Source: an uncultured Acidobacteriota bacterium
GTDB taxonomy: Bacteria; Acidobacteriota; Thermoanaerobaculia; Multivoradales; SZUA-115
Reading direction: 5' to 3'
Assembly (NCBI GenBank): GCA_963805975.1
Contig: CAWDVR010000003.1
Location: forward strand, 736,001 to 800,000
DNA: 64,000 nt
Part shown: positions 5,922 to 36,436 of the stretch, in pieces
Layout: the number at the start of each line of letters is the position of its first letter
Position numbering within the stretch: the first letter of the stretch is position 1
Translations under genes and position numbers: made by a program
The notes under the pieces: generated by a model
What the model was told of the DNA's origin: nothing
Database searches by the model: none
What the model saw: only the letters and a program-made list of their open reading frames with translations

Positions 5922-8813
5922 ATGGGTGCTTGCGCAAGCAGAATCCAGTCGACCGGGCTATTCACCGAGCTCGAGAAGTCGAGCAGGCGGGGCGGCATCG
6001 AGGCCGACGAGGTCACGCAGCTTCAAGGGCTGGTCCTGGGAGTGGCGGATCTGGTCGGCCCCCATCTCGACCAGATTCAGCAGACCTTCGAGCAGTACAC
6101 TCAGCACAACCTGGAGCACAGCCGGAACGTGGCCGAGCACATGGCTCGCATCGTGCCAGGGGCTACGCTCGCCCAGCTCAACGCTCTCGAACTAAGCCTC
6201 TTGCTCCTCGCAGCCCTGCTGCACGACGTGGGCATGGTGGTCAGCACGCAGGAGGGCGAGAGATCACACAGGCAACGGAGTTCCGCGACTTCCTGCAGCT
6301 CTCGGGCGCAGAGCGACTGCGGGCCGCGCAGGCCGCGAGGGAGCGAGGAGATGCCTGGAGAGCGCGGCGCATCGACACGGCGCTGCTTGCCGAGTTCGTA
6401 CGACGGCACCACGCGAAGCGCGTTCACGACTTCATCGGCAGACACTTCGCCGACCGCTTGGACTTTCGGCAGATGTCCTTCGCACGGGACCTCGGCCAGC
6501 TCTGTGAGAGCCACGCCTGGCCGTTGGAGAAGGATTACAAGGAAGGGCGCTCGGTCGCGGAACTCCCCACCGACCGACGTTTTGAAGGCGTGCCCGTCAA
6601 CCTTCAGTATCTCGCCTGCCTGCTGCGCCTTGCGGACATCCTGGACTTCGACCGCTCGCGCACTCCTCTTCTTGTCTTCGAGAGTAAGGCGTTCACCGAG
6701 GAGAAGAGCTGGGAGGAGTGGAACAAGCACCTCTCAGTACGCGGCTGGAACATTGACCCGACGACTGTCGCCTACCAGGCCGAATGCAGCCACCCGAGCT
6801 TTTACGTAGCCGTGCAAGGGTTTCTGGACTGGATCGACCAGGAGCTGCGAGCCTGCCGCTACCTGCTAGACGGGCAGCCAGCGGAAGTCGCCAGTCGGTA
6901 CGAGCTTCGCCTTCCCGTCGCTGTAGACCGCCGGAAGGTGAAGATGGACGACCCGATGGTGCTGCCCGGAGGTTTCCGCTTCCAGCTCGAGTACGAGGAG
7001 ATATTGAACCTTCTCATGGACAGGAGCCTCTACCCGGACGACTCGCTGTTCCTGCGCGAGCTGTTGCAGAACTCCCTCGACGCTGTCATCGCAAGCAGGC
7101 CGAGGCAAAGCTCGTCTATGGCTACGATCATGCGCGCCACTACGAACCGCGGATTGTGGTTCTCGACTACCAGGACGATCCCAAGGAGCCACGCATCGAG
7201 TTCCTGGATAACGGCGTCGGAATGTCGCAGCGCGTCGTGGAGCAATTCTTCCTGCGGGTCGGCAAGAGCTACTACAAGTCACCGGAGTTCGAGACTGAGC
7301 GAGCGCGTTACCAGGAAGCGGGCATTCAGCTCGACGTATGCTCGCAGTTTGGTATCGGCATCCTCTCCTGCTTCATCGTGGCGAATCGGCTTCGGGTAGA
7401 GACCTACCAGCATGGGCAGGAGCCTCTGAGGCTAGCGGTGGATGGACCCTCGAAGTACTTCGTGATCCGGCGGCTCTGCCGACAAGCGCAGCAGCCGTTC
7501 GACAGGCAGCCCACGAAACCTGAAGATGACGGGCCGCCAGAGCGAACGGGAACTCGAGTAGTTGTGGCGCTGAAGGAGGGGACGAGACTCGATCTGCTGG
7601 AGGTTCTTCAACGATTTGCGGTGAACCTCGATACGCCTGTCTGGATTCTTGACGGAAGCGCGGGTGACCCGAAGCGACTCTCGCGGCGCCAGTGGGATGG
7701 GGCTCCACCGACTCTGAGGAAGTTCGTCGAAGGAACCCAGCGCTACGGGGAGAATCCTACGAGCTTCTCGACGAGTTGCAAGCCTTGGTTCAACAGAGGT
7801 TCAGAGACTGGCGCCTCAAACTCAAGGGAGTGCCCGAGTTCGCCTGCTTTTTCCAGCCAGTGTCGATCATGCAGGGCAGTACGCCCCGGGCGGATGTGGC
7901 GAAGGGGATTCTCCCACTTCTGAAGGCGGACGCGGATGAGCCTTTCCAGGAGTTTCTGAGGCGGCAGCAAGCTCAGCTCGGTTTCACCGATGACCACACC
8001 TTTGCCGTGGACCGCGATAGCGCGTGGAGGAGCTTCTCGAGTTCAGAGCGTGAGTGGATTGTTGAACGCGTCCGCTCGATCGCCGAGGGGCTTTCGGAAT
8101 CCAGTGAGAGAACTCCAGCCGAGGTAGCGCAGGAGCTCCTGGAAGCCTCCCTTGATCTGACGTTACGGGAACTTCGACCGTTCCAGTACTCGCCTCAGAT
8201 TCCTTGCGGCTACTCCCTGGCACTAAACTCGGTGTTGATACCTCAAGGAATCGTCGCATGGGAGCCAGAGACTTTTCGGACTGGGAGGCCCCGGATCGGG
8301 AACCATTGTGGTGGGGCTTGGCTCGATGTCCGCGGAGCTTGTGCACCGAAGCCCAGTGCCAATCGGCTGTTCTTGCCCCGTGAGCGTGCAGCGAGACTTG
8401 CTGTCGGCTACGGGCAATTCGTGTTCGATGAGGCTCTCCGTTTGGAGATGCCGCTCTCCAGCGGTCAAGGTTGGCGGAACTGGCTGAGAAGCGTTGTTTC
8501 CGGTGTTGTGGATTCCCTTGCAAGCTTTGAGAGCATCGAGGCCCTTCGGCAGCGGGTCGGGACGGATGCTGAGGGGCTGGGCATCATGTGCTGGTTCGCC
8601 GGAAAGAGCGAGGTGGTTAGTCGTGGCGAGCTAAGACAAGCGTTCGCGCAGGCGGTTCCCATGGTGAACAGGTTTGGGCACTCATCGCACCAAACTGGGC
8701 TGGATGCGAGGGATGGGATCAACCGACTACTGCTTTCACATCTCGTGGGCAAGGATCTCGCAACCGTAGAGCGTCTTCCACTCGACCGTCTCGATCCCGA
8801 CGAGATCGCCTGA
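5922..8813 (+). pseudogene. HD-domain (HD-CE type) plus HSP90-like GHKL ATPase protein, split by three -1 frameshifts (about 6255, 7085, 7750); decay or sequencing error
   Basis: Consecutive frames give YTQHNLEHSRNV, LLHDVGM, RLADILDFDRSRTP, then LY...FLRELLQNSLDA, DNGVGM, GKSYY, SQFGIGILSCF; joined product about 964 aa. Confidence 0.8.
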
Positions 8814-9165
8814 CGAGGCTGCCACTCCCCGGCGGTACCATCTGGTTGCGCCGCCGGATCAAGGATGGGAAGGCGCCCAGCGGCCGGCGCTGCCGCCAGC
8901 ATGTGCTCGGAGCCAAGGGGGGAGGTCGATGAAGGCGCTCAACTCGGCGAACAGAGTCACTTGAGATTCTAGATCACCATCGCAAGACCGAGCTGCCGCG
9001 CGCGGGCATTCGGGTCGGCCAGCGCCCCCTTGAGGTCCCAGCCGATTCCGGCACTTGTCGGAGGGAAGCGCTGAGCCACTGATTCTGCGCACTTCCCCGA
9101 AACGGCTGGCGCCGATTGATCGGACGTCCGAAGGCAATGCCTATCCGGGGCGCTAGGATGCCGGA

Positions 9166-10262
9166 ATGCGACCCTTCCGCCTCGGCCTTCTCGTAACCCT
9201 TCTCTCGGCCTCCTCGGCTCTCGCCGCCCAACCCGCCCGCGGCATTCCCGCCAGCTCCGCCCAGCGCTTCGCGGACTTGGCGCTTGCTTGTCTGCACAAG
9301 GAGTACCCCAACAAGATCGCCCATGTGCTGGCGGGTGATGGAGACGTGAAGCCGCCGCGCGATCTCACGCCGGTCTTCTTCGGCTGCTACGACTGGCACT
9401 CCGCGGTGCACGGCCACTGGCTGCTGGCGCGTCTGGCCCGCACCTATCCGGAGGCGCCGTTCGCCGACCCGGCGCGGCAGGCGCTCGCCGCTGAGCCTCA
9501 CACCCCGAGGCTTTGCCGCCGAGGTGGCCTATCTCGAGGGACCGGGGCGCGTCTCCTTCGAGCGGCCGTACGGCCTGGCCTGGCTGCTCCAACTGGCAGC
9601 CGAGCTGTGCGCAGTGGGAGGACCCGTGGGCGCGGGACTGGTCGGCGGCGATGGCACCTCTCGAGCAGGCCGCGGCCCGGCGCCTCCGGGACTGGCTGCC
9701 CAAGCTCTCGCGGCCCATCCGCGGCGGCGAGCACGACCAGACCGCCTTTGCGTTCGGCCTCGTGGCGGACTGGGCGCGCATCCGGCAAGACCAGAGCATG
9801 GCCGAGCTGCTGGAGGCGCGCGTCCGCGAGCTGTACCTGGCCGACCGCCACTGCCCTCTGAGCTACGAGCCGGGTGGGCAGGACTTCCTCTCCCCTTGCC
9901 TGGGTGAGGCGGACCTCATGCGCCGCTTCCTGCCGCCGGCCGAGTTTGCCCGCTGGCTGCGCGAGTTTCTGCCGGAGATCCCGAGGAACGGCTCGGCAGC
10001 GTGGCTGGTGCCGGCGGTGGTGACCGACCCGACCGACCCCAAGCTCGCCCACCTCGATGGACTGAACCTCTCGCGGGCCTGGATGCTCGAGGGCATCGCC
10101 TCCGGCCTGCCGCCCAAAGACAGGCGCCGTGCCTCGCTCCTCGCCGCGGCCCACGAGCACCGCGTGAAGGGCCTCGCCGCCGTCACCGGCGAGCACTACG
10201 AGGGCGGTCACTGGCTGGGGAGCTTCGCGGTGTACCTGGTGACCGGGCGAGGGCTCGACTGA
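9166..10262 (+). pseudogene. DUF2891 family secreted protein with two +1 frameshifts (about 9492 and 9608)
   Basis: KEYPNK, FFGCYDWHSAVHGHW, FERPYGLAWLL, GEHDQTAF, DFLSP, HLDGLNLSRAW and YEGGHWLGSFA spread over three frames. Confidence 0.8.
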
Positions 10263-10344
10263 GCCGAGCGGACGTCAACGCGGCAGGGCTTCCCTCGGAC
10301 CGAGACCTCGCAAGGTGACGACCCGAGGGGGCTTTGCGACAGCA

Positions 10345-30666: not shown

Positions 30667-32127
30667 TCACGCCAGCGCCGGCTGGGTGTGGCGGCCGCGC
30701 TTGAAATCCTCCTTGCGCAGGCCAAGCTCGCGCATCTTGTCGTAGAGCGAGCGCGGGTCGAGGCCGGCGCGGCGCGCCGTCTCGCCGATCCGGCCGCCGG
30801 TCGCGCGGAGCTGCTCTTCGAGGTACAGGCGCTCGCAGGTCTCGACCACCTCCCGCCGCACGTCGCGGAGCGGCTTGTCCAGCCAGTCCCGCGGCATCCC
30901 GAGCCCGGAAGCGGTACCGGTGCGGTCCGGTCCGGCCTTGGCGGAGGCTTCGGCGAAGCGGGCGATGTTCTCCGGCAGGTCGTTGAGAGTGATCTCTTCG
31001 CCTTCGCAGAGCAGCACCGTGCGCTCCATGACGTTGATCAGCTCGCGCACGTTGCCCGGCCAAGGGTAGTGGACCAGCGCGTCGAGCGCCTCTTCGTGCA
31101 CCGCCTCCGCCGTGCGCCCGAGCTGGACGCGGAAACGGTCCATGTAGCTCTGGGCGAGCGCGGGGATGTCCTCCTGCCGCTCGCGCAACGGCGGCACCGT
31201 CAAGGTCACGACACCCAGTCGGTAGTAGAGATCACTCCTGAACTCTTTGGCCTTGATCGCCTCCTCGAGGTTCCGGTTGGTGGCCGCCATCACCCGCACG
31301 TCGACCTCGATGAGCTGCTCGCCGCCGACGCGCTGGATCTTCCGCTCCTGGAGCACGCGCAGGAGCTTGGCTTGCAAGTGGGGCGACATGTCCGCGATCT
31401 CGTCGAGAAAGATCGTGCCGCGGTGTGCGAGCTCGAAGTAACCGCGCCGCGAGCGGATAGCGCCGGTGAAAGCCCCTTTGTCGTGACCGAAGAGCTCGCT
31501 TTCGAGCAGCGTGTCCGGGATGGCGGCGGAGTTGACGGCGATGAAGGGAGCGCTGGAACGCGGGCCTTCGGCGTGGATTGCGCGCGCCAGCCACTCCTTT
31601 CCGACCCCGGTTTCGCCTAGAATCAGCAACGAGCTGTCGGACGCGGCGACTCGGCGCGCGAGCTGTAACAGAGCCTGCATGGACTCGCTGGCCGAGGCAA
31701 AGTCACTTAGGTGATAGTGTTCATCCGGCTGCTCGGCTCGAATTCGGTTGATCAGCGCCTCGCGGCGGCGACTGACCAAGGTTCTCAGCGTCTGAGCGAG
31801 GACCGAGTCCGATAAATCGGGAGAGATCACCGCAAAGCAGCCCAAGGCCAGAAGCGCCGCCCGATCCTCCGAGTCTTCCTGGGCTTGCAGGACGATGAGC
31901 TCGGGGCGGTCGGGAAGCTTGCGCAACGCAGAGACGAAGTCCGACGGCGGTTCTGTGACGGCGTCGCGGTCGACGACTACCAGGTCGCAGCTATCGCGAG
32001 CGAGGCCTTCCCAAAGACCCTCGCTCTTGGAAGCGGCGAACACGAGGACGTTTGGCTGGGCGATCAGGCGGCTGACCCGGCGATAGACAGCCGGCTGATC
32101 GATGACGACGAGGATGCGGATCAGCAT
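30667..32127 (-). CDS. sigma54-dependent enhancer-binding protein (atypical REC, AAA, Fis HTH)
   Basis: GETGVGKE, ESELFGH, GAFTGA, FLDEI, WPGNVREL, C-terminal HTH. Confidence 0.95.
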   Translation of the reverse strand: MLIRILVVIDQPAVYRRVSRLIAQPNVLVFAASKSEGLWEGLARDSCDLVVVDRDAVTEPPSDFVSALRKLPDRPELIVLQAQEDSEDRAALLALGCFAVISPDLSDSVLAQTLRTLVSRRREALINRIRAEQPDEHYHLSDFASASESMQALLQLARRVAASDSSLLILGETGVGKEWLARAIHAEGPRSSAPFIAVNSAAIPDTLLESELFGHDKGAFTGAIRSRRGYFELAHRGTIFLDEIADMSPHLQAKLLRVLQERKIQRVGGEQLIEVDVRVMAATNRNLEEAIKAKEFRSDLYYRLGVVTLTVPPLRERQEDIPALAQSYMDRFRVQLGRTAEAVHEEALDALVHYPWPGNVRELINVMERTVLLCEGEEITLNDLPENIARFAEASAKAGPDRTGTASGLGMPRDWLDKPLRDVRREVVETCERLYLEEQLRATGGRIGETARRAGLDPRSLYDKMRELGLRKEDFKRGRHTQPALA

Positions 32128-32146
32128 GCGAGGTCACTCTTCAAGT

Positions 32147-32191
32147 TTCGGAGATTGTGTATCCGATCGGTTCGGATTTCAAGGCTCCGAA
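32147..32191. promoter_or_regulatory. Tandem palindromic upstream activating sequence, TTCGGA-N9-TCCGAW x2
   Basis: TTCGGA-gattgtgta-TCCGAT (32147-32167) and TTCGGA-tttcaaggc-TCCGAA (32171-32191), about 90-130 bp upstream of a sigma54 box. Confidence 0.6.
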
Positions 32192-32277
32192 TCTTGTTTC
32201 GGGGTAGTTTGCCGCTCAGCGGGTCGATGGACTAGCAAGTCTTTCATTTCAAAGGACTTGGTCCGTTGGCCCGGAGC

Positions 32278-32293
32278 TGGCATCCGGTTTGCC
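32278..32293 (+). promoter_or_regulatory. sigma54 (-24/-12) promoter of the lipoprotein/LDT operon
   Basis: TGGCATCCGGTTTGCC; IHF-like site CAAGTCTTTCATT at about 32236-32248 between it and the UAS. Confidence 0.7.
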
Positions 32294-32638
32294 AAGGCAG
32301 TGAATCGAAACCGGCGGGTATGAGCGAGTGTGTCGCTTGTCCGTACCGGTATCGAATGCGGTCCCTCCATGGGCAGAGGAGAACTCCACCATGGCTGGCA
32401 AACCGAAGGCACCCGTTCCGGAGCGCAGGCTCGCGGTAACGCGGCCGGCAAGTGCGGGCGGTTCCACCGGCAAGCAGGCCGGCACTCCTGGTGCGATCAA
32501 AGCACTGATCGCTCAAGGGCCGAAACGCTAGCCAGTAGAACCGACGCGAGGGTTGGGCACGGCGCAAGCGCCTACCCGGCCTCGAGCCAGGTCGCACGGG
32601 GTGTCGGGACCGTGGTTTATTTGAGAGGAGATTGTAAA

Positions 32639-33250
32639 ATGCGCAGCAAGACGATCCTGATCGGCTCGGTGCTGCTCTCGTGCGTGTTGCTGGTCACGGG
32701 TTGTGCCAAGCCACCGCAGGCGGAGCTCGATGGCCTCAAGGCTTCTGTCGCCGGTGCCGAGTCGGCGCAGGCCGAGACCTATTCACCTTCCGAGCTCGCT
32801 ACCGCCCGCGACGCGCAAGCCGCGGCGCAGGCCGAGATCGATGCCCAGGCGAAGAAATTCGCCCTCTTCCGTTCCTACAAGAAGGCCAACGAGCTGATCA
32901 CCGACGCCAACGCCAAGGCGAAGGCCGCCCAGGAAGCCGCGGTCGCCAACAAGGCCAAGGCCAAGACGGACGCCGATGCCGCCGTCGTCGCCGCCAAGGA
33001 CGCGGTGACCGCTCTCCAGACCGCTCTCACCGAGCTCGAGGCCTGCCCGCGCAAGCCGAAGGGCTTCTCCGAGGACCTCGCGGCGCTCAAGGCTCGCGCC
33101 GAGGGCCTGAGCTCGCAGGCTGCGCAGCTCGACTCCCAGATCTCTTCCGAGGACTACAACGGTGCGAAGTCGACGGCCGAGTCCGTGGCGAGCGGTGCGG
33201 CGACCTTGACCACCGACATCACGGGAGCCAAAGAAAAGATCAAATGCTAG
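32639..33250 (+). CDS. Ala/Lys-rich coiled-coil lipoprotein (DUF4398-like)
   Basis: GAGGAG RBS, lipobox VTGC, helical heptads, ends KEKIKC. Confidence 0.85.
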   Translation: MRSKTILIGSVLLSCVLLVTGCAKPPQAELDGLKASVAGAESAQAETYSPSELATARDAQAAAQAEIDAQAKKFALFRSYKKANELITDANAKAKAAQEAAVANKAKAKTDADAAVVAAKDAVTALQTALTELEACPRKPKGFSEDLAALKARAEGLSSQAAQLDSQISSEDYNGAKSTAESVASGAATLTTDITGAKEKIKC

Positions 33251-34407
33251 GAACCGGCTATCCAAAAGCCGTTACCGCGGCGTCCTTCCGGCGCCGCCCG
33301 CGTTTCCTTCTGCAACTCTCGCTGGGCGCCGCCTTCTTGGCGGCGTCCGTTTTCTCTTTTGGGGGCTGCTCGAAGGAGCCGGAGTTCGACGTGCCGGCCG
33401 CCCGCTCGGCGGCAAACCGCGTGCTGTCGACCCTCGGCACCGCGGAGCCCGAGCAGACAAAGCTCCTCAAGACCCTGATCGAGCTCGCCGAGCAGACCAC
33501 GGTTCGCGAACGCGCCGAGTGGTTCTGGCAGCGCGAGCCCGAGCTGATCGAGGGCTCCTGGGGACGCGTGGCGGCGACCTCGGTGGTGGCGCTCGAGCAG
33601 CTCAAGACACACAAAGAGGCCTCTCGCACCCGTTGGGTGGAAGCCGAAAAGAAAGCAACAGCGGCGCTGGCCAAAGCGCGCGAGGAGGTCAAGGCGCCCG
33701 GCCTGTCGCGGCGCGAGCACAGCCTCGTGCAGCAGGCCGCCGTGGTCCTCGACACCTCCCGGCGGCTCGCCGCCGCGGGCGAGGTCAGCCGTGCTACAGC
33801 ACTGGCGGGTCTCGCTCTGCAGAAGACCGCCGAGGTGCACACCGCCTGGGACCATCTGCACGCTCGTTTCGACGACCGGAGCACGCTCCGGCGCTGGATG
33901 GCGCTGGTCGAAGCGGAGATCGCCAGGACTGCCTCCAGCCAGTCGAACGCTTTCGTCGTCGACAAGCTGAACCGCCGGCTCTACGTCTATTCACGCGGTA
34001 GAAAAGTAGACTCTTTTCCCGTGGAGCTGGGAGCCAAGGGCCTGCGGGCCAAGCTCCACGCCGGTGACCGCGCGACGCCCGAGGGCCGCTACCGCGTCAC
34101 CGAGGTCCGTTCCCCCGGCCAGACCCGCTACTACAAGGCCCTGATGCTCGACTATCCCAACAGCGAGGATCGCGCCCGCTTTGCCGAGGCGCAGCGCCGG
34201 GGGCAGGTTCCGCGCGGCGTGGGCCCCGGGAGCCTGATCGAGATCCACGGCGACGGCGGCAAGGGCAAGGACTGGACCGATGGTTGCATCGCGCTCACCA
34301 ATGCGGCCATGGATCGGCTGTTCCGCTACGCCGCGATCGACACTCCGGTCGTCATCGTCGGCAAGGTGCCGGAGGTCAAGGCCAACCAGAGAGCGGAGGG
34401 AAGATGA
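33244..34407 (+). CDS. L,D-transpeptidase (YkuD) with N-terminal coiled coil, probable lipoprotein
   Basis: VVDK..R.L, GDRATPEG.Y, IEIHG...WTDGCIAL; FGGC lipobox-like motif. Confidence 0.9.
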   Translation: MLGTGYPKAVTAASFRRRPRFLLQLSLGAAFLAASVFSFGGCSKEPEFDVPAARSAANRVLSTLGTAEPEQTKLLKTLIELAEQTTVRERAEWFWQREPELIEGSWGRVAATSVVALEQLKTHKEASRTRWVEAEKKATAALAKAREEVKAPGLSRREHSLVQQAAVVLDTSRRLAAAGEVSRATALAGLALQKTAEVHTAWDHLHARFDDRSTLRRWMALVEAEIARTASSQSNAFVVDKLNRRLYVYSRGRKVDSFPVELGAKGLRAKLHAGDRATPEGRYRVTEVRSPGQTRYYKALMLDYPNSEDRARFAEAQRRGQVPRGVGPGSLIEIHGDGGKGKDWTDGCIALTNAAMDRLFRYAAIDTPVVIVGKVPEVKANQRAEGR

Positions 34408-35120
34408 GCATGCACTCGGAAGCAGTCACCGTCTCCACCCTGGCTCCTCCTGTTGCCGAACCGGTCGCGGCTCCTCGGCGCCGGATCTGGCGCGGCCTGC
34501 TGCTGGTCTTCCTGGTCTTGGGTTTCCTGGCCGTGGGCGCCGTGGGTTACGTCGTTTCGCGCGGAGGGTGGTTCGACGTCGAGCCGCTGGTCGGCTCGGC
34601 TCCGACGCCCGACCCGAGCTCGAAGGAGGTCGTGCGGCAGGAGAAGCTGGGACGGAAGCTGGGCTCTCTCGCCCCCACCGGCGTCTACGTGACGGTCGAC
34701 ACCTACAACAACCGGGTGATCGTCTTCCAGGACGGGAAGCCGCTGCGCGAAGCCGTGTGCTCGACCGGCAGCGGCACCATCCTCAAGGATCCGGAAAAGG
34801 GCCGCGAATGGGTCTTCGACACTCCCCGCGGCGAGCGCAAGGTGCAGCGCAAAGTGAAGAACCCCATCTGGGTGAAGCCGGACTGGGCGTTCATCGAGGA
34901 GGGATTCCAGCCCCCTCCCAAGGACTCTCCGGACCGCTACGACGATTTCTCGCTCGGCGACTACGGCCTGTACCTCGGGGACGGCTACATCATGCACGGC
35001 ACGCTCTTCCAGACCCTCCTGGGCCAGCGCGTGACCCACGGCTGCATCCGCCTGGGAGACGCTGACCTCGAATGGATCTACAAGACAGTGCCGCTGGGAG
35101 CCCGGGTTTATCTCTTCTGA
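34404..35120 (+). CDS. Membrane-anchored L,D-transpeptidase (YkuD/ErfK-like)
   Basis: N-terminal TM; CSTG, FDTPRG, NPIWVKPDW, YIMHGT...THGCIRL. Confidence 0.92.
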   Translation: MSMHSEAVTVSTLAPPVAEPVAAPRRRIWRGLLLVFLVLGFLAVGAVGYVVSRGGWFDVEPLVGSAPTPDPSSKEVVRQEKLGRKLGSLAPTGVYVTVDTYNNRVIVFQDGKPLREAVCSTGSGTILKDPEKGREWVFDTPRGERKVQRKVKNPIWVKPDWAFIEEGFQPPPKDSPDRYDDFSLGDYGLYLGDGYIMHGTLFQTLLGQRVTHGCIRLGDADLEWIYKTVPLGARVYLF

Positions 35121-35836
35121 TGCGGGCGAGGGTCCTGGTGCCGGGAGGCGCCCTGCTGCTCGCGTTGGCGACGATCGCCCTCGCAGCTCCGCTGGTGGCG
35201 GCCCCTCCATCGAAGGCGGCCAAAGGGCCCCCTCCGCCCAAGAGCTTCCTCGAGGCCGAGCTCGCGACGGCGCAGACCATCGACCTCTACCTCGTGCTGA
35301 GGCCTAAAGCCAAGGCTCTCGAGATCAGGGCACGCGGAGTTACGCTGGCGACGGTGCCGGTCGAGCAGGTGGCGCTGCTGCGCTACCGAGCGCCGCGCGG
35401 GACGAGCTCGGAGCCGGGACGCATGCCCTTCTTCTATTGGACGGTGGCGGAGGATCCCGAGGCAGCCCACCGCAAAGTGATTGCGCCCGCCGAGCTGCGA
35501 CCCTATTCCGAACAGGAGTCCGCGGAGGAAGAGCAGAGCACTCAGGTTCCGGTGGCCACCGCGCCTGCCGGTGCCGCAGAGCCGCTGCCCACTCCGCCTA
35601 CCGACTACAAGATCGCTCTGGATCTGGGCTGGCAGCTCTGGGTCACTGGCAAACTGCCGGACACCAGTCTCCTGGCCCGGCTCAAGTACGCGTTCGCCGA
35701 GGGCTGGGGACGGCTGCGCGGAAAGCAGCCCGACATCCAGGATCGCGTCGTGCTGGTCTTTCCGCCTGCAGAGGCGCAGCGCATGCACCACCTCTTCCGC
35801 GCAGGTACCCGGATCTACCTCGACCCCACCGGGTAA
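35120..35836 (+). CDS. Secreted hypothetical protein, possibly catalytically dead LDT-like
   Basis: TGATG coupling; signal peptide; LYLVL...LEIRARG start and LFRAGTRIYL end resemble YkuD termini; no Cys in the protein. Confidence 0.6.
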   Translation: MRARVLVPGGALLLALATIALAAPLVAAPPSKAAKGPPPPKSFLEAELATAQTIDLYLVLRPKAKALEIRARGVTLATVPVEQVALLRYRAPRGTSSEPGRMPFFYWTVAEDPEAAHRKVIAPAELRPYSEQESAEEEQSTQVPVATAPAGAAEPLPTPPTDYKIALDLGWQLWVTGKLPDTSLLARLKYAFAEGWGRLRGKQPDIQDRVVLVFPPAEAQRMHHLFRAGTRIYLDPTG

Positions 35837-35866: not shown

Positions 35867-36436
35867 TCAGCGCGCGATCCGAATCACGATCGCCGCCCCA
35901 AGCGCCAGGAGTCCGATCAGACCGATCAGACCTTGATTGCTGGCGGTCGCCGGAAGTGCCGTGCGCGAAGTCGGAGCGTTGGCGTCGTACGCCGGGGTTT
36001 CATAGGCTGGGGTTGGGGTCGCCACCTCGGGAGCAGGCGCCGGAGCCGGGACCATAGCCGTCGGAGGCGGCGTCACGGCTGCCGTGGGGGTCGTCGTCAC
36101 TGCCACGGGAGGCGTCGTCACCATAGGCTCAGCCTCTCCCTGGTAGCCGAGGATCTCGTCGGCGATCGCTCTACCCTTCTCGACGTGATAGTTGACCTTG
36201 ACGCGGCTTCCCGTGGTGCGGTTCTGGGCGCCGACCGTCGCGTCGACGAGAAACACAGTCATGGTCTGCCCCGCGTCGTCGCGAATCACGAGCTGATCGT
36301 TGGAACTCGAGACCACGATGCCGGTGGCAAAAGTCGAGCCGGGTGTCGATGCGTTTCCCATATCCTGCGGTGCCTGGGCAATCGCAGGACCGACGCTGAG
36401 CAGGGTCAGAACGGCGAGTACAGTCAGTCTTTTCAT
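35867..36436 (-). CDS. Secreted protein with C-terminal LPxTA sortase-type sorting signal
   Basis: GAGGAG RBS, signal peptide, small beta domain, Pro/Thr linker, LPATAS plus hydrophobic helix plus RIAR tail. Confidence 0.8.
   Translation of the reverse strand: MKRLTVLAVLTLLSVGPAIAQAPQDMGNASTPGSTFATGIVVSSSNDQLVIRDDAGQTMTVFLVDATVGAQNRTTGSRVKVNYHVEKGRAIADEILGYQGEAEPMVTTPPVAVTTTPTAAVTPPPTAMVPAPAPAPEVATPTPAYETPAYDANAPTSRTALPATASNQGLIGLIGLLALGAAIVIRIAR

Follow-up and report, generated by a model that had tools for sequence, protein, structure and literature searches.

A conserved operon of Acidobacteriota as a candidate reversible tether between a lipoprotein rod and peptidoglycan

Near the middle of a 64,000-nucleotide (nt) stretch of DNA from an uncultured Acidobacteriota bacterium (assembly GCA_963805975.1, contig CAWDVR010000003.1, positions 736,001 to 800,000; "the window" below is this whole stretch) lie four overlapping genes encoding a lipoprotein, P0001, two proteins of the L,D-transpeptidase (LDT) family, LDT1 and LDT2, and a fourth protein, P0004, which appears to have kept the YkuD fold of this family without its catalytic motif. 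We put at about even the chances that the operon specifies a reversible covalent tether: P0001, a lipoprotein predicted to be rod-shaped, would be bonded to peptidoglycan via its Lys141 by LDT2, with the help of the pseudoenzyme P0004, and LDT1 would reverse the reaction. This reading is drawn from the gene order, from the residue found two places after the catalytic cysteine (Cys+2) in each enzyme, and from the invariance of Lys141 in operon-linked lipoproteins together with its loss in unlinked paralogues; it gains support from the presence in the same genome of separate YkuD genes, apparently for general wall work, and from the absence there of a match to Lpp. LDT2 would form an acyl-enzyme with a tetrapeptide stem and pass the stem to the Lys141 amine at the far tip of the rod, with P0004 as its likely partner or adaptor; LDT1 likely cuts the bond between Lys141 and peptidoglycan again, and its own copy of the rod would keep its catalytic domain about as far from a membrane. 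The features concerned are as follows.

30667..32127, minus strand: sigma54 enhancer-binding protein (EBP), 486 residues, with atypical receiver, AAA+ and helix-turn-helix domains (Pfam/NCBIfam); divergent from the operon
32148-32166 and 32172-32190: two TCGG-N-CCGA inverted repeats seen in the sequence, candidate activator-binding sites (upstream activator sequences, UAS)
32236..32248, minus strand: site resembling that of integration host factor (IHF), one mismatch, between UAS and promoter
32277..32293, plus strand: sigma54 -24/-12 promoter site, GG-N10-GC, conserved in EBP-linked loci
32391..32531, plus strand: small open reading frame (ORF) in the leader, 46 codons, basic and Pro/Gly-rich, family-specific, with a coding-type pattern of change
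32639..33250, plus strand: lipoprotein P0001, 203 residues, a DUF4398-related helical rod, with lipobox Cys22, KFALFRSY loop, Cys136, Lys141 and Cys203
33323..33358, plus strand: terminator-like hairpin (33323-33349) and T-tract, inside the 5' end of the LDT1 gene and shortly after the lipoprotein gene
33244..34407, plus strand: LDT1 (P0002), 387 residues, anchor, lipoprotein-like stalk and DpaA-like YkuD domain with His335, Cys348 and Ala350
34404..35120, plus strand: LDT2 (P0003), 238 residues, N-terminal transmembrane segment and ErfK/YbiS-like YkuD domain with His198, Cys214 and Arg216
35120..35836, plus strand: P0004, 238 residues, exported YkuD-fold pseudoenzyme by predicted fold, a degenerate relative of LDT2 without Cys

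The four genes overlap by 7, 4 and 1 nt, in order, and all of them, with the divergent EBP gene, are present as an initial annotation of this DNA had them. P0004 was matched in 23 of 61 related genomes, and at each of 20 loci that were fetched both LDT genes are followed by gene 4, the lipoprotein gene being present at 19. A scan of about one third of the GTDB collection with an LDT2 alignment yielded 581 relatives, of which the best 80 were kept; these 80 include, by their titles, members of the Thermoanaerobaculia, Holophagae, Terriglobia, Aminicenantes, Desulfuromonadales, Geobacteraceae, Nitrospirota and Bacteroidales. Conservation of the cluster, which the initial annotation had proposed to check, is borne out at 115 of 168 distinct loci, where all four genes are found; a subset that includes LDT2 is present at 20 (mostly at contig ends), the lipoprotein gene alone at 14, and 19 fall below thresholds, the last two classes (14 + 19) being largely paralogue controls fetched on purpose. 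Forty loci chosen by a strong lipoprotein match alone, hand-picked from the top matches and away from contig edges, carry LDT2 in 38 cases and LDT1 in 36. Across 300 genomes of the phylum, counted at a lipoprotein match of E<=1e-35 with one genome dropped and with kin that are not independent, lipoprotein and pseudoenzyme occur together in 75, singly in 2 and 3, and neither in 220. Three records titled Eubacteriales also carry the operon (L101, L104, L108); their proteins group with those of Aminicenantes type (L101), and the records are possibly mislabelled bins.

The host assembly, which named homologues and related loci place in the class Thermoanaerobaculia of the Acidobacteriota, is 96% complete and contains no match to Lpp (PF04728), in agreement with the non-Lpp setting first proposed. 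Outside the operon it has two YkuD genes, of which by motif one is LdtD-like and the other DpaA-like and which would serve general wall work, as well as LolA-like genes and a DAP (diaminopimelate) epimerase gene.

The YkuD proteins

LDT2 matches YkuD (PF03734) at 76.9 bits, above the cut-off, and a hydropathy peak at residues 33-51 agrees with the membrane-anchored LDT of the initial annotation; the best solved structure in a profile search is the Klebsiella LDT 4lzh. H198, C214 and R216 are invariant across 111 rows, and Arg stands at Cys+2 in all 124 LDT2 proteins. LDT1, too, matches YkuD above the Pfam cut-off, and its H335, C348 and A350 are invariant in 15 rows; Arg is absent from Cys+2, which is Ala, Ser or Gly in 119 of 119. 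The Cys+2 position separates transpeptidases from hydrolases (Winkle 2021, 10.1101/2021.02.21.432140), and since the two proteins fall on either side of that division, LDT2 would be of transpeptidase type and LDT1 of the DpaA hydrolase type, the attaching and detaching pair that had been suggested.

The profile of LDT1 matches DpaA best among solved structures (8ikr, E 1.4e-9), then 7o21 (Bd1075, 1.4e-6) and 4xzz (Csd6, 6e-5), both shape-determining carboxypeptidases. It scores 35.1 bits against the DpaA equivalog NF040599, whose cut-off is 365; by sequence, then, LDT1 is DpaA-like and is not a DpaA orthologue. Its stalk, also seen at the outset, is homologous to the entire lipoprotein (hhalign E 1.6e-5 over 167 columns, with direct hidden Markov model matches at many loci), the window's copy being without the loop lysine. 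Two loci (L077, L082) have an LDT1 of about 195 residues that is without the helical stalk, the other operon genes being intact. In five near-complete genomes of one family (f61; L153, L155, L193-L195) lipoprotein, LDT2 and pseudoenzyme are found with no LDT1 match, and the core of the operon therefore appears to comprise three genes. This absence resembles the situation of Lpp genomes without DpaA, the enzyme being missing from a third of the genomes that have Lpp (10.1101/2021.02.21.432140).

P0004 has no Pfam match and, as the initial annotation had it, no Cys; the catalytic HG..GC motif occurs in none of 111 rows of its family. Its predicted structure (pLDDT 73) nevertheless resembles LDTs: all 40 matches listed by Foldseek are of LDT type (best E 2.5e-3), and the top 20 of a VIA structure search are of YkuD type, with Z from 7.1 to 3.5 against 2.4 for the next, unrelated, structure. 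The best match is middling (Z 7.1, root-mean-square deviation 3.4, 95 residues aligned), and the protein aligns weakly to LDT2 (E 7.9e-4). On the strength of the model, P0004 is a YkuD-fold pseudoenzyme.

The kinship of LDT1 to Bd1075 and Csd6 raises another possibility, that the operon is a wall-remodelling or cell-shape module. LDT2 would then carry out cross-linking or the exchange of D-amino acids, LDT1 would act as an L,D-carboxypeptidase in the manner of Bd1075/Csd6, and lipoprotein and pseudoenzyme would be localising scaffolds. Inducible sigma54 control, with a site at 19 of 120 loci, would suit such a module, and the DpaA-like proteins of bacteria without Lpp may be carboxypeptidases (10.1101/2021.02.21.432140). 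We consider it unlikely: it leaves unexplained why one column of the lipoprotein admits only Lys and why this Lys is lost from unlinked paralogues, and LDT1 is the dispensable member of the operon.

The predicted lipoprotein rod and its tip lysine

The model of P0001 (pLDDT 92) has helices at residues 27-42, 50-71, 81-134, 143-169 and 173-200. The geometry deduced from this predicted secondary structure is of two three-helix bundles sharing one helix of 54 residues. At 1.5 A per residue this helix measures about 80 A; the lipid-bearing Cys22 and the hydrophobic KFALFRSY loop are predicted at one end of the rod and the 135-142 loop, Lys141 and the C-terminus at the other. Of the long coiled-coil lipoprotein ending KEKIKC that had been described, the ending stands, while the model is not that of an Lpp-type coiled coil; Lpp and OprI are short single-helix homotrimers, and P0001 was modelled as a monomer. 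P0001 matches no Pfam family, PF14346 (DUF4398) included; 43 of 111 members of its own family do match PF14346 at E<=0.01. Nor does it belong with Lpp or OprI, having no PF04728 match and scoring 18.7 bits against NF040598 (Ala_zip_lipo), whose cut-off is 43. A fold search with the model gave no significant match (best E 0.94), and the matches of its profile to PDB sequences were all weak and likely compositional. The lipobox Cys is present in 112 of 112 lipoproteins, the +2 residue being Ala in 94 of 116 and Asp in 3. This is the residue read by the E. coli sorting rule, the validity of which is unproven in this host. In our estimate the anchoring membrane is more likely the outer than the inner one.

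Lys141 (codon 33059-33061) lies in a column with Lys in 101 of the 102 rows aligned, most of which are representatives at 50% identity, and is Lys in all 122 operon-linked lipoproteins (112/112 and a further 10/10), never Arg. Other conserved lysines of P0001 do exchange with Arg (K73, 84K/16R; K105, 83K/12R), so that at Lys141 it appears to be the amine, not the charge, that is selected. Among 30 unlinked paralogues, defined by having no LDT gene within the fetched flank of about 4 kb, 9 have Lys in this column and 12 have Arg, and none shows the loop motif; of the 11 that score best, 10 retain E-Q-Y at the membrane end and none has Lys141, five having Arg. A quick tree with long branches requires 3 to 6 changes of label for the unlinked paralogues. 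At four loci (L161, L163, L165, L167) a paralogue that has Arg where the tip lysine would be shares its genome with an operon-type lipoprotein; such proteins are possibly non-attachable decoys or spacers.

The initial annotation had placed the attachment, in the manner of Lpp, on a lysine at or beside the C-terminus, and had itself named poor conservation of a C-terminal Lys as evidence to the contrary. The last residue of P0001 is Cys, and a terminal Lys is found in no more than 37 of the 112 operon-linked orthologues, so an acceptor of the Lpp type fails. Among 121 close homologues the last residue is Cys in 108 and Lys in 4, and the penultimate one varies (K66/R27/G10/C7/H5/N3); in 34 of the 112 orthologues the last three residues include no Lys. 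Moreover, the final Cys goes with the loop Cys: across the 112, Cys136 and Cys203 are both present in 39, both absent in 72, and the tail Cys stands without its fellow in 1. This co-occurrence indicates a disulfide and fits the predicted geometry of the tip; a Cys136-Cys203 bond, likely on these sequences, would pin the C-terminus beside the tip loop in this lineage. A basic tail is nevertheless found in 109 of 112 orthologues, with Lys in one of the last two positions in 74, which would allow attachment by the tail in some; the tail, too, lies at the predicted tip, and Legionella Lpg1810 is attached via a C-terminal Lys-Thr (PMC12729407). As the Lpp box needs a terminal Lys (PMC12274547), and given the Cys and the variability just described, we regard attachment through the tail as improbable for the operon.

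A more serious alternative, though still a rather unlikely one, is that P0001 serves as a non-covalent activator or positioning rod, the Lys141 loop docking on LDT2 or the pseudoenzyme to trigger 3-3 cross-linking while LDT1 trims stems. The Lpo lipoproteins, activators of the penicillin-binding proteins, provide the model. In its favour are the surface loop, which is invariant, and the strict association of the lipoprotein with LDT2 and pseudoenzyme; LDT2 is equally compatible with cross-linking and anchoring, for LDTs of the two kinds are inseparable by sequence and their activities cross lineages (Hugonnet, PMC10434034). The codon usage of the lipoprotein gene also accords with it, being at the 68th percentile and so giving no sign of Lpp-like abundance, a weak test in that the ribosomal genes are barely above background. 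Were Lys141 a docking contact, however, Arg would usually be expected at its place in some of the 122 orthologues, as it is found at K73 and K105; the hairpin that follows the lipoprotein gene points to a product in excess of the enzymes; and the genome has its separate LdtD-like gene.

Several considerations weigh against the tether. To the carboxypeptidases next in line among the structures matching LDT1, the lysines of the tail, the inseparability of anchoring and cross-linking LDTs and the codon usage must be added the following. The bond itself is inferred from sequence and models, and a contact for binding or activation would account just as well for an invariant lysine in the loop. The unlinked paralogues are long-branched and lose other residues besides Lys141, E66 being lost in 18 of 30 and D146 in 27 of 30. 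A crude lipobox pattern is found in only 52 of 112 LDT1 proteins, and many of their rods would therefore act from the inner membrane, which makes the lipoprotein's own membrane uncertain. The host already has a Pal-like lipoprotein, and most sampled Acidobacteriota genomes, the 220 of 300, are without the system.

Expression and surroundings of the operon

The EBP is a clear sigma54 activator (Sigma54_activat, E 2.7e-69, with the GAFTGA motif). Its receiver domain (residues 1-115) scores 29.0 bits, under the cut-off of 30.2, and keeps the Asp; the usual Thr/Ser and Lys are missing. It has no conserved adjacent kinase and may be phosphorylation-independent; a neighbouring GAF kinase and NarL-type regulator, considered as its partners, were rejected, being adjacent at only 1 of 20 loci.

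A divergent EBP orthologue is present at 11 of 120 loci, 10 of which have the -24/-12 site in the same place. The site occurs at 17 of 24 loci with any EBP in the fetched DNA and at 2 of 96 without, compared with 0.8 per 120 expected from shuffles and 4 on the reverse strand. Other GG-N10-GC strings in the leader are not conserved and were rejected as promoters. In the genome at large, 1 of 75 sigma54-like sites shows the repeat-plus-promoter layout. The CCGAT arms of the UAS repeats are invariant at 6 of 6 aligned family loci, with similar repeats at other EBP-linked loci, and rpoN is present in the genome. Of the UAS/IHF/-24/-12 arrangement first described, then, the repeats and promoter are conserved, while the IHF-like site is at chance level (4 such sites in the window, 3.6 expected) and is plausible only from its position between UAS and promoter. 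At most other loci words of sigma70 type are enriched (TTGACAA, 21 against 1.1 expected). The proposed sigma54 inducibility is thus real at this locus and not general: control by sigma54 seems genuine and dedicated here, where the activator would switch the operon on in this family, and apparently secondary across the wider family.

Six loci have another sigma54 activator, downstream of the operon (L084, at 7470-10303 and with a HAMP-type kinase; L091, L094, L114, L119, L157), and in five of these a -24/-12 site stands 67-81 nt before the lipoprotein gene, which points to an independent sigma54 route. At a Desulfuromonadales locus a pair of kinase and activator stands downstream instead.

The small ORF of the leader has a strong ribosome-binding site and is conserved at five family loci. 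Over its five copies the ratio of synonymous to non-synonymous changes is 100/51 in frame and 28/147 and 30/117 off-frame, the pairs not being independent. The ATG is replaced in three copies, which likely start at GTG or CTG a few codons upstream. A predicted long-range helix (about 32357-32364 with 32607-32614) encloses the ORF and is conserved at 6 loci, among which no compensatory changes were seen; no Rfam family matches the leader above its gathering score. Separately, a hairpin at 32311-32350 in the 5' leader carries the motif GTGTGTCG, which recurs in some sigma70-driven relatives (L028, L031).

A terminator-like hairpin follows the lipoprotein gene at 72 of 112 loci, compared with 18 after LDT1, 9 after LDT2 and 25 in shuffles, a pattern that production of more lipoprotein than enzyme would explain; on the tether reading the hairpin would provide substrate in such excess. 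The region of hairpin and T-tract (33280-33358) encodes RRRSFLF at the N-terminus of LDT1, here and at L026-L030 and L042-L048; this string resembles a twin-arginine export motif, and the overlap is either dual coding or coincidence. In RNA-library contigs from two soil studies a close relative is represented by its leader and lipoprotein gene (1361 nt, corresponding to 32173-33533, with 47 differences); as these may be DNA and give no level, strand or start, they were not used as evidence. Beyond the operon and convergent with it (35867-36436, minus strand) is a gene for a secreted protein with a Pro/Thr linker, an LPxTA-like sorting tail and a transmembrane segment, which adjoins the operon at 1 of 20 loci.

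Comparison with known systems

We found no description of the operon, nor of a YkuD pseudoenzyme of the P0004 kind, in the open-licence PubMed Central and bioRxiv literature, subscription journals and supplements (which could list the genes) lying outside this scope; the available portions of two broad papers, PMC13721041 and 10.1101/2021.05.31.446380, do not describe the operon. Lpp is confined to a subclade of the Gammaproteobacteria (10.1101/2021.05.31.446380), and DpaA-like enzymes occur in many diderms without it, including Acidobacteria, deltaproteobacteria and Bacteroidetes, where their substrates are unknown (10.1101/2021.02.21.432140). The operon supplies a candidate for such a substrate, together with both enzymes and one residue of interest, Lys141, and it points to a required YkuD pseudoenzyme. 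If the tether is real, it is a new type of membrane-to-wall anchor in bacteria without Braun's lipoprotein. The wider proposition, to which we give somewhat less than an even chance, is of a second widespread covalent tether of membrane to wall independent of Lpp, present in Acidobacteriota, Desulfuromonadales, Nitrospirota and Bacteroidales: a spectrin-like rod of about 80 A would act as spacer, be stapled at an internal tip lysine by a transpeptidase-pseudoenzyme pair, and be released by an amidase that sits on a second copy of the rod, a built-in ruler by which the enzyme would reach the bond to be cut.

Internal lysines and inner-membrane substrates have precedents. In Coxiella burnetii the outer-membrane lipoprotein LimB is joined to meso-DAP through its internal Lys21; it is specific to Coxiella, gives a spacing of about 35 A, and its LDT is unknown (PMC12729407). 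P0001, compared with it by description only, is like LimB in having a candidate internal acceptor, and differs in that its lysine is predicted to lie about 80 A from the lipid and in that the candidate enzymes are encoded next door, in several phyla. The Dickeya protein OutB, attached to peptidoglycan by LDT chemistry from the inner membrane (PMC12274547), becomes relevant if the lipoprotein here stays in that membrane; its attachment, unlike that proposed here, depends on an Lpp-like C-terminal box and on the enzymes that serve Lpp. The L,D-carboxypeptidases Bd1075, Csd6 and Pgp2 are related to LDT1 through its hydrolase-type YkuD domain; LDT1 differs in its lipoprotein-like helical stalk and in its association with a transpeptidase, a pseudoenzyme and a rod lipoprotein.

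The closest parallel is with Braun's lipoprotein itself. In E. coli LdtA, LdtB and LdtC (ErfK, YbiS, YcfS) attach Lpp and DpaA (LdtF, YafK) detaches it, and in P. aeruginosa OprI is served by LdtPae2 and LdtPae3. Shared with the Lpp and OprI systems are a helical lipoprotein rod of comparable predicted length and a pair of YkuD enzymes with Arg or Ala at Cys+2. The differences are as marked: the Lpp/OprI zipper is replaced by a DUF4398-related bundle rod of about 180 residues without a terminal Lys, the attaching candidate is anchored in the membrane, the detaching one has a rod copy of its own, a pseudoenzyme belongs to the core, and all are encoded in one operon. If our inference holds, the operon would work as Lpp, its Ldt enzymes and DpaA do, yet with a lipoprotein that fails membership of the Lpp/OprI family.

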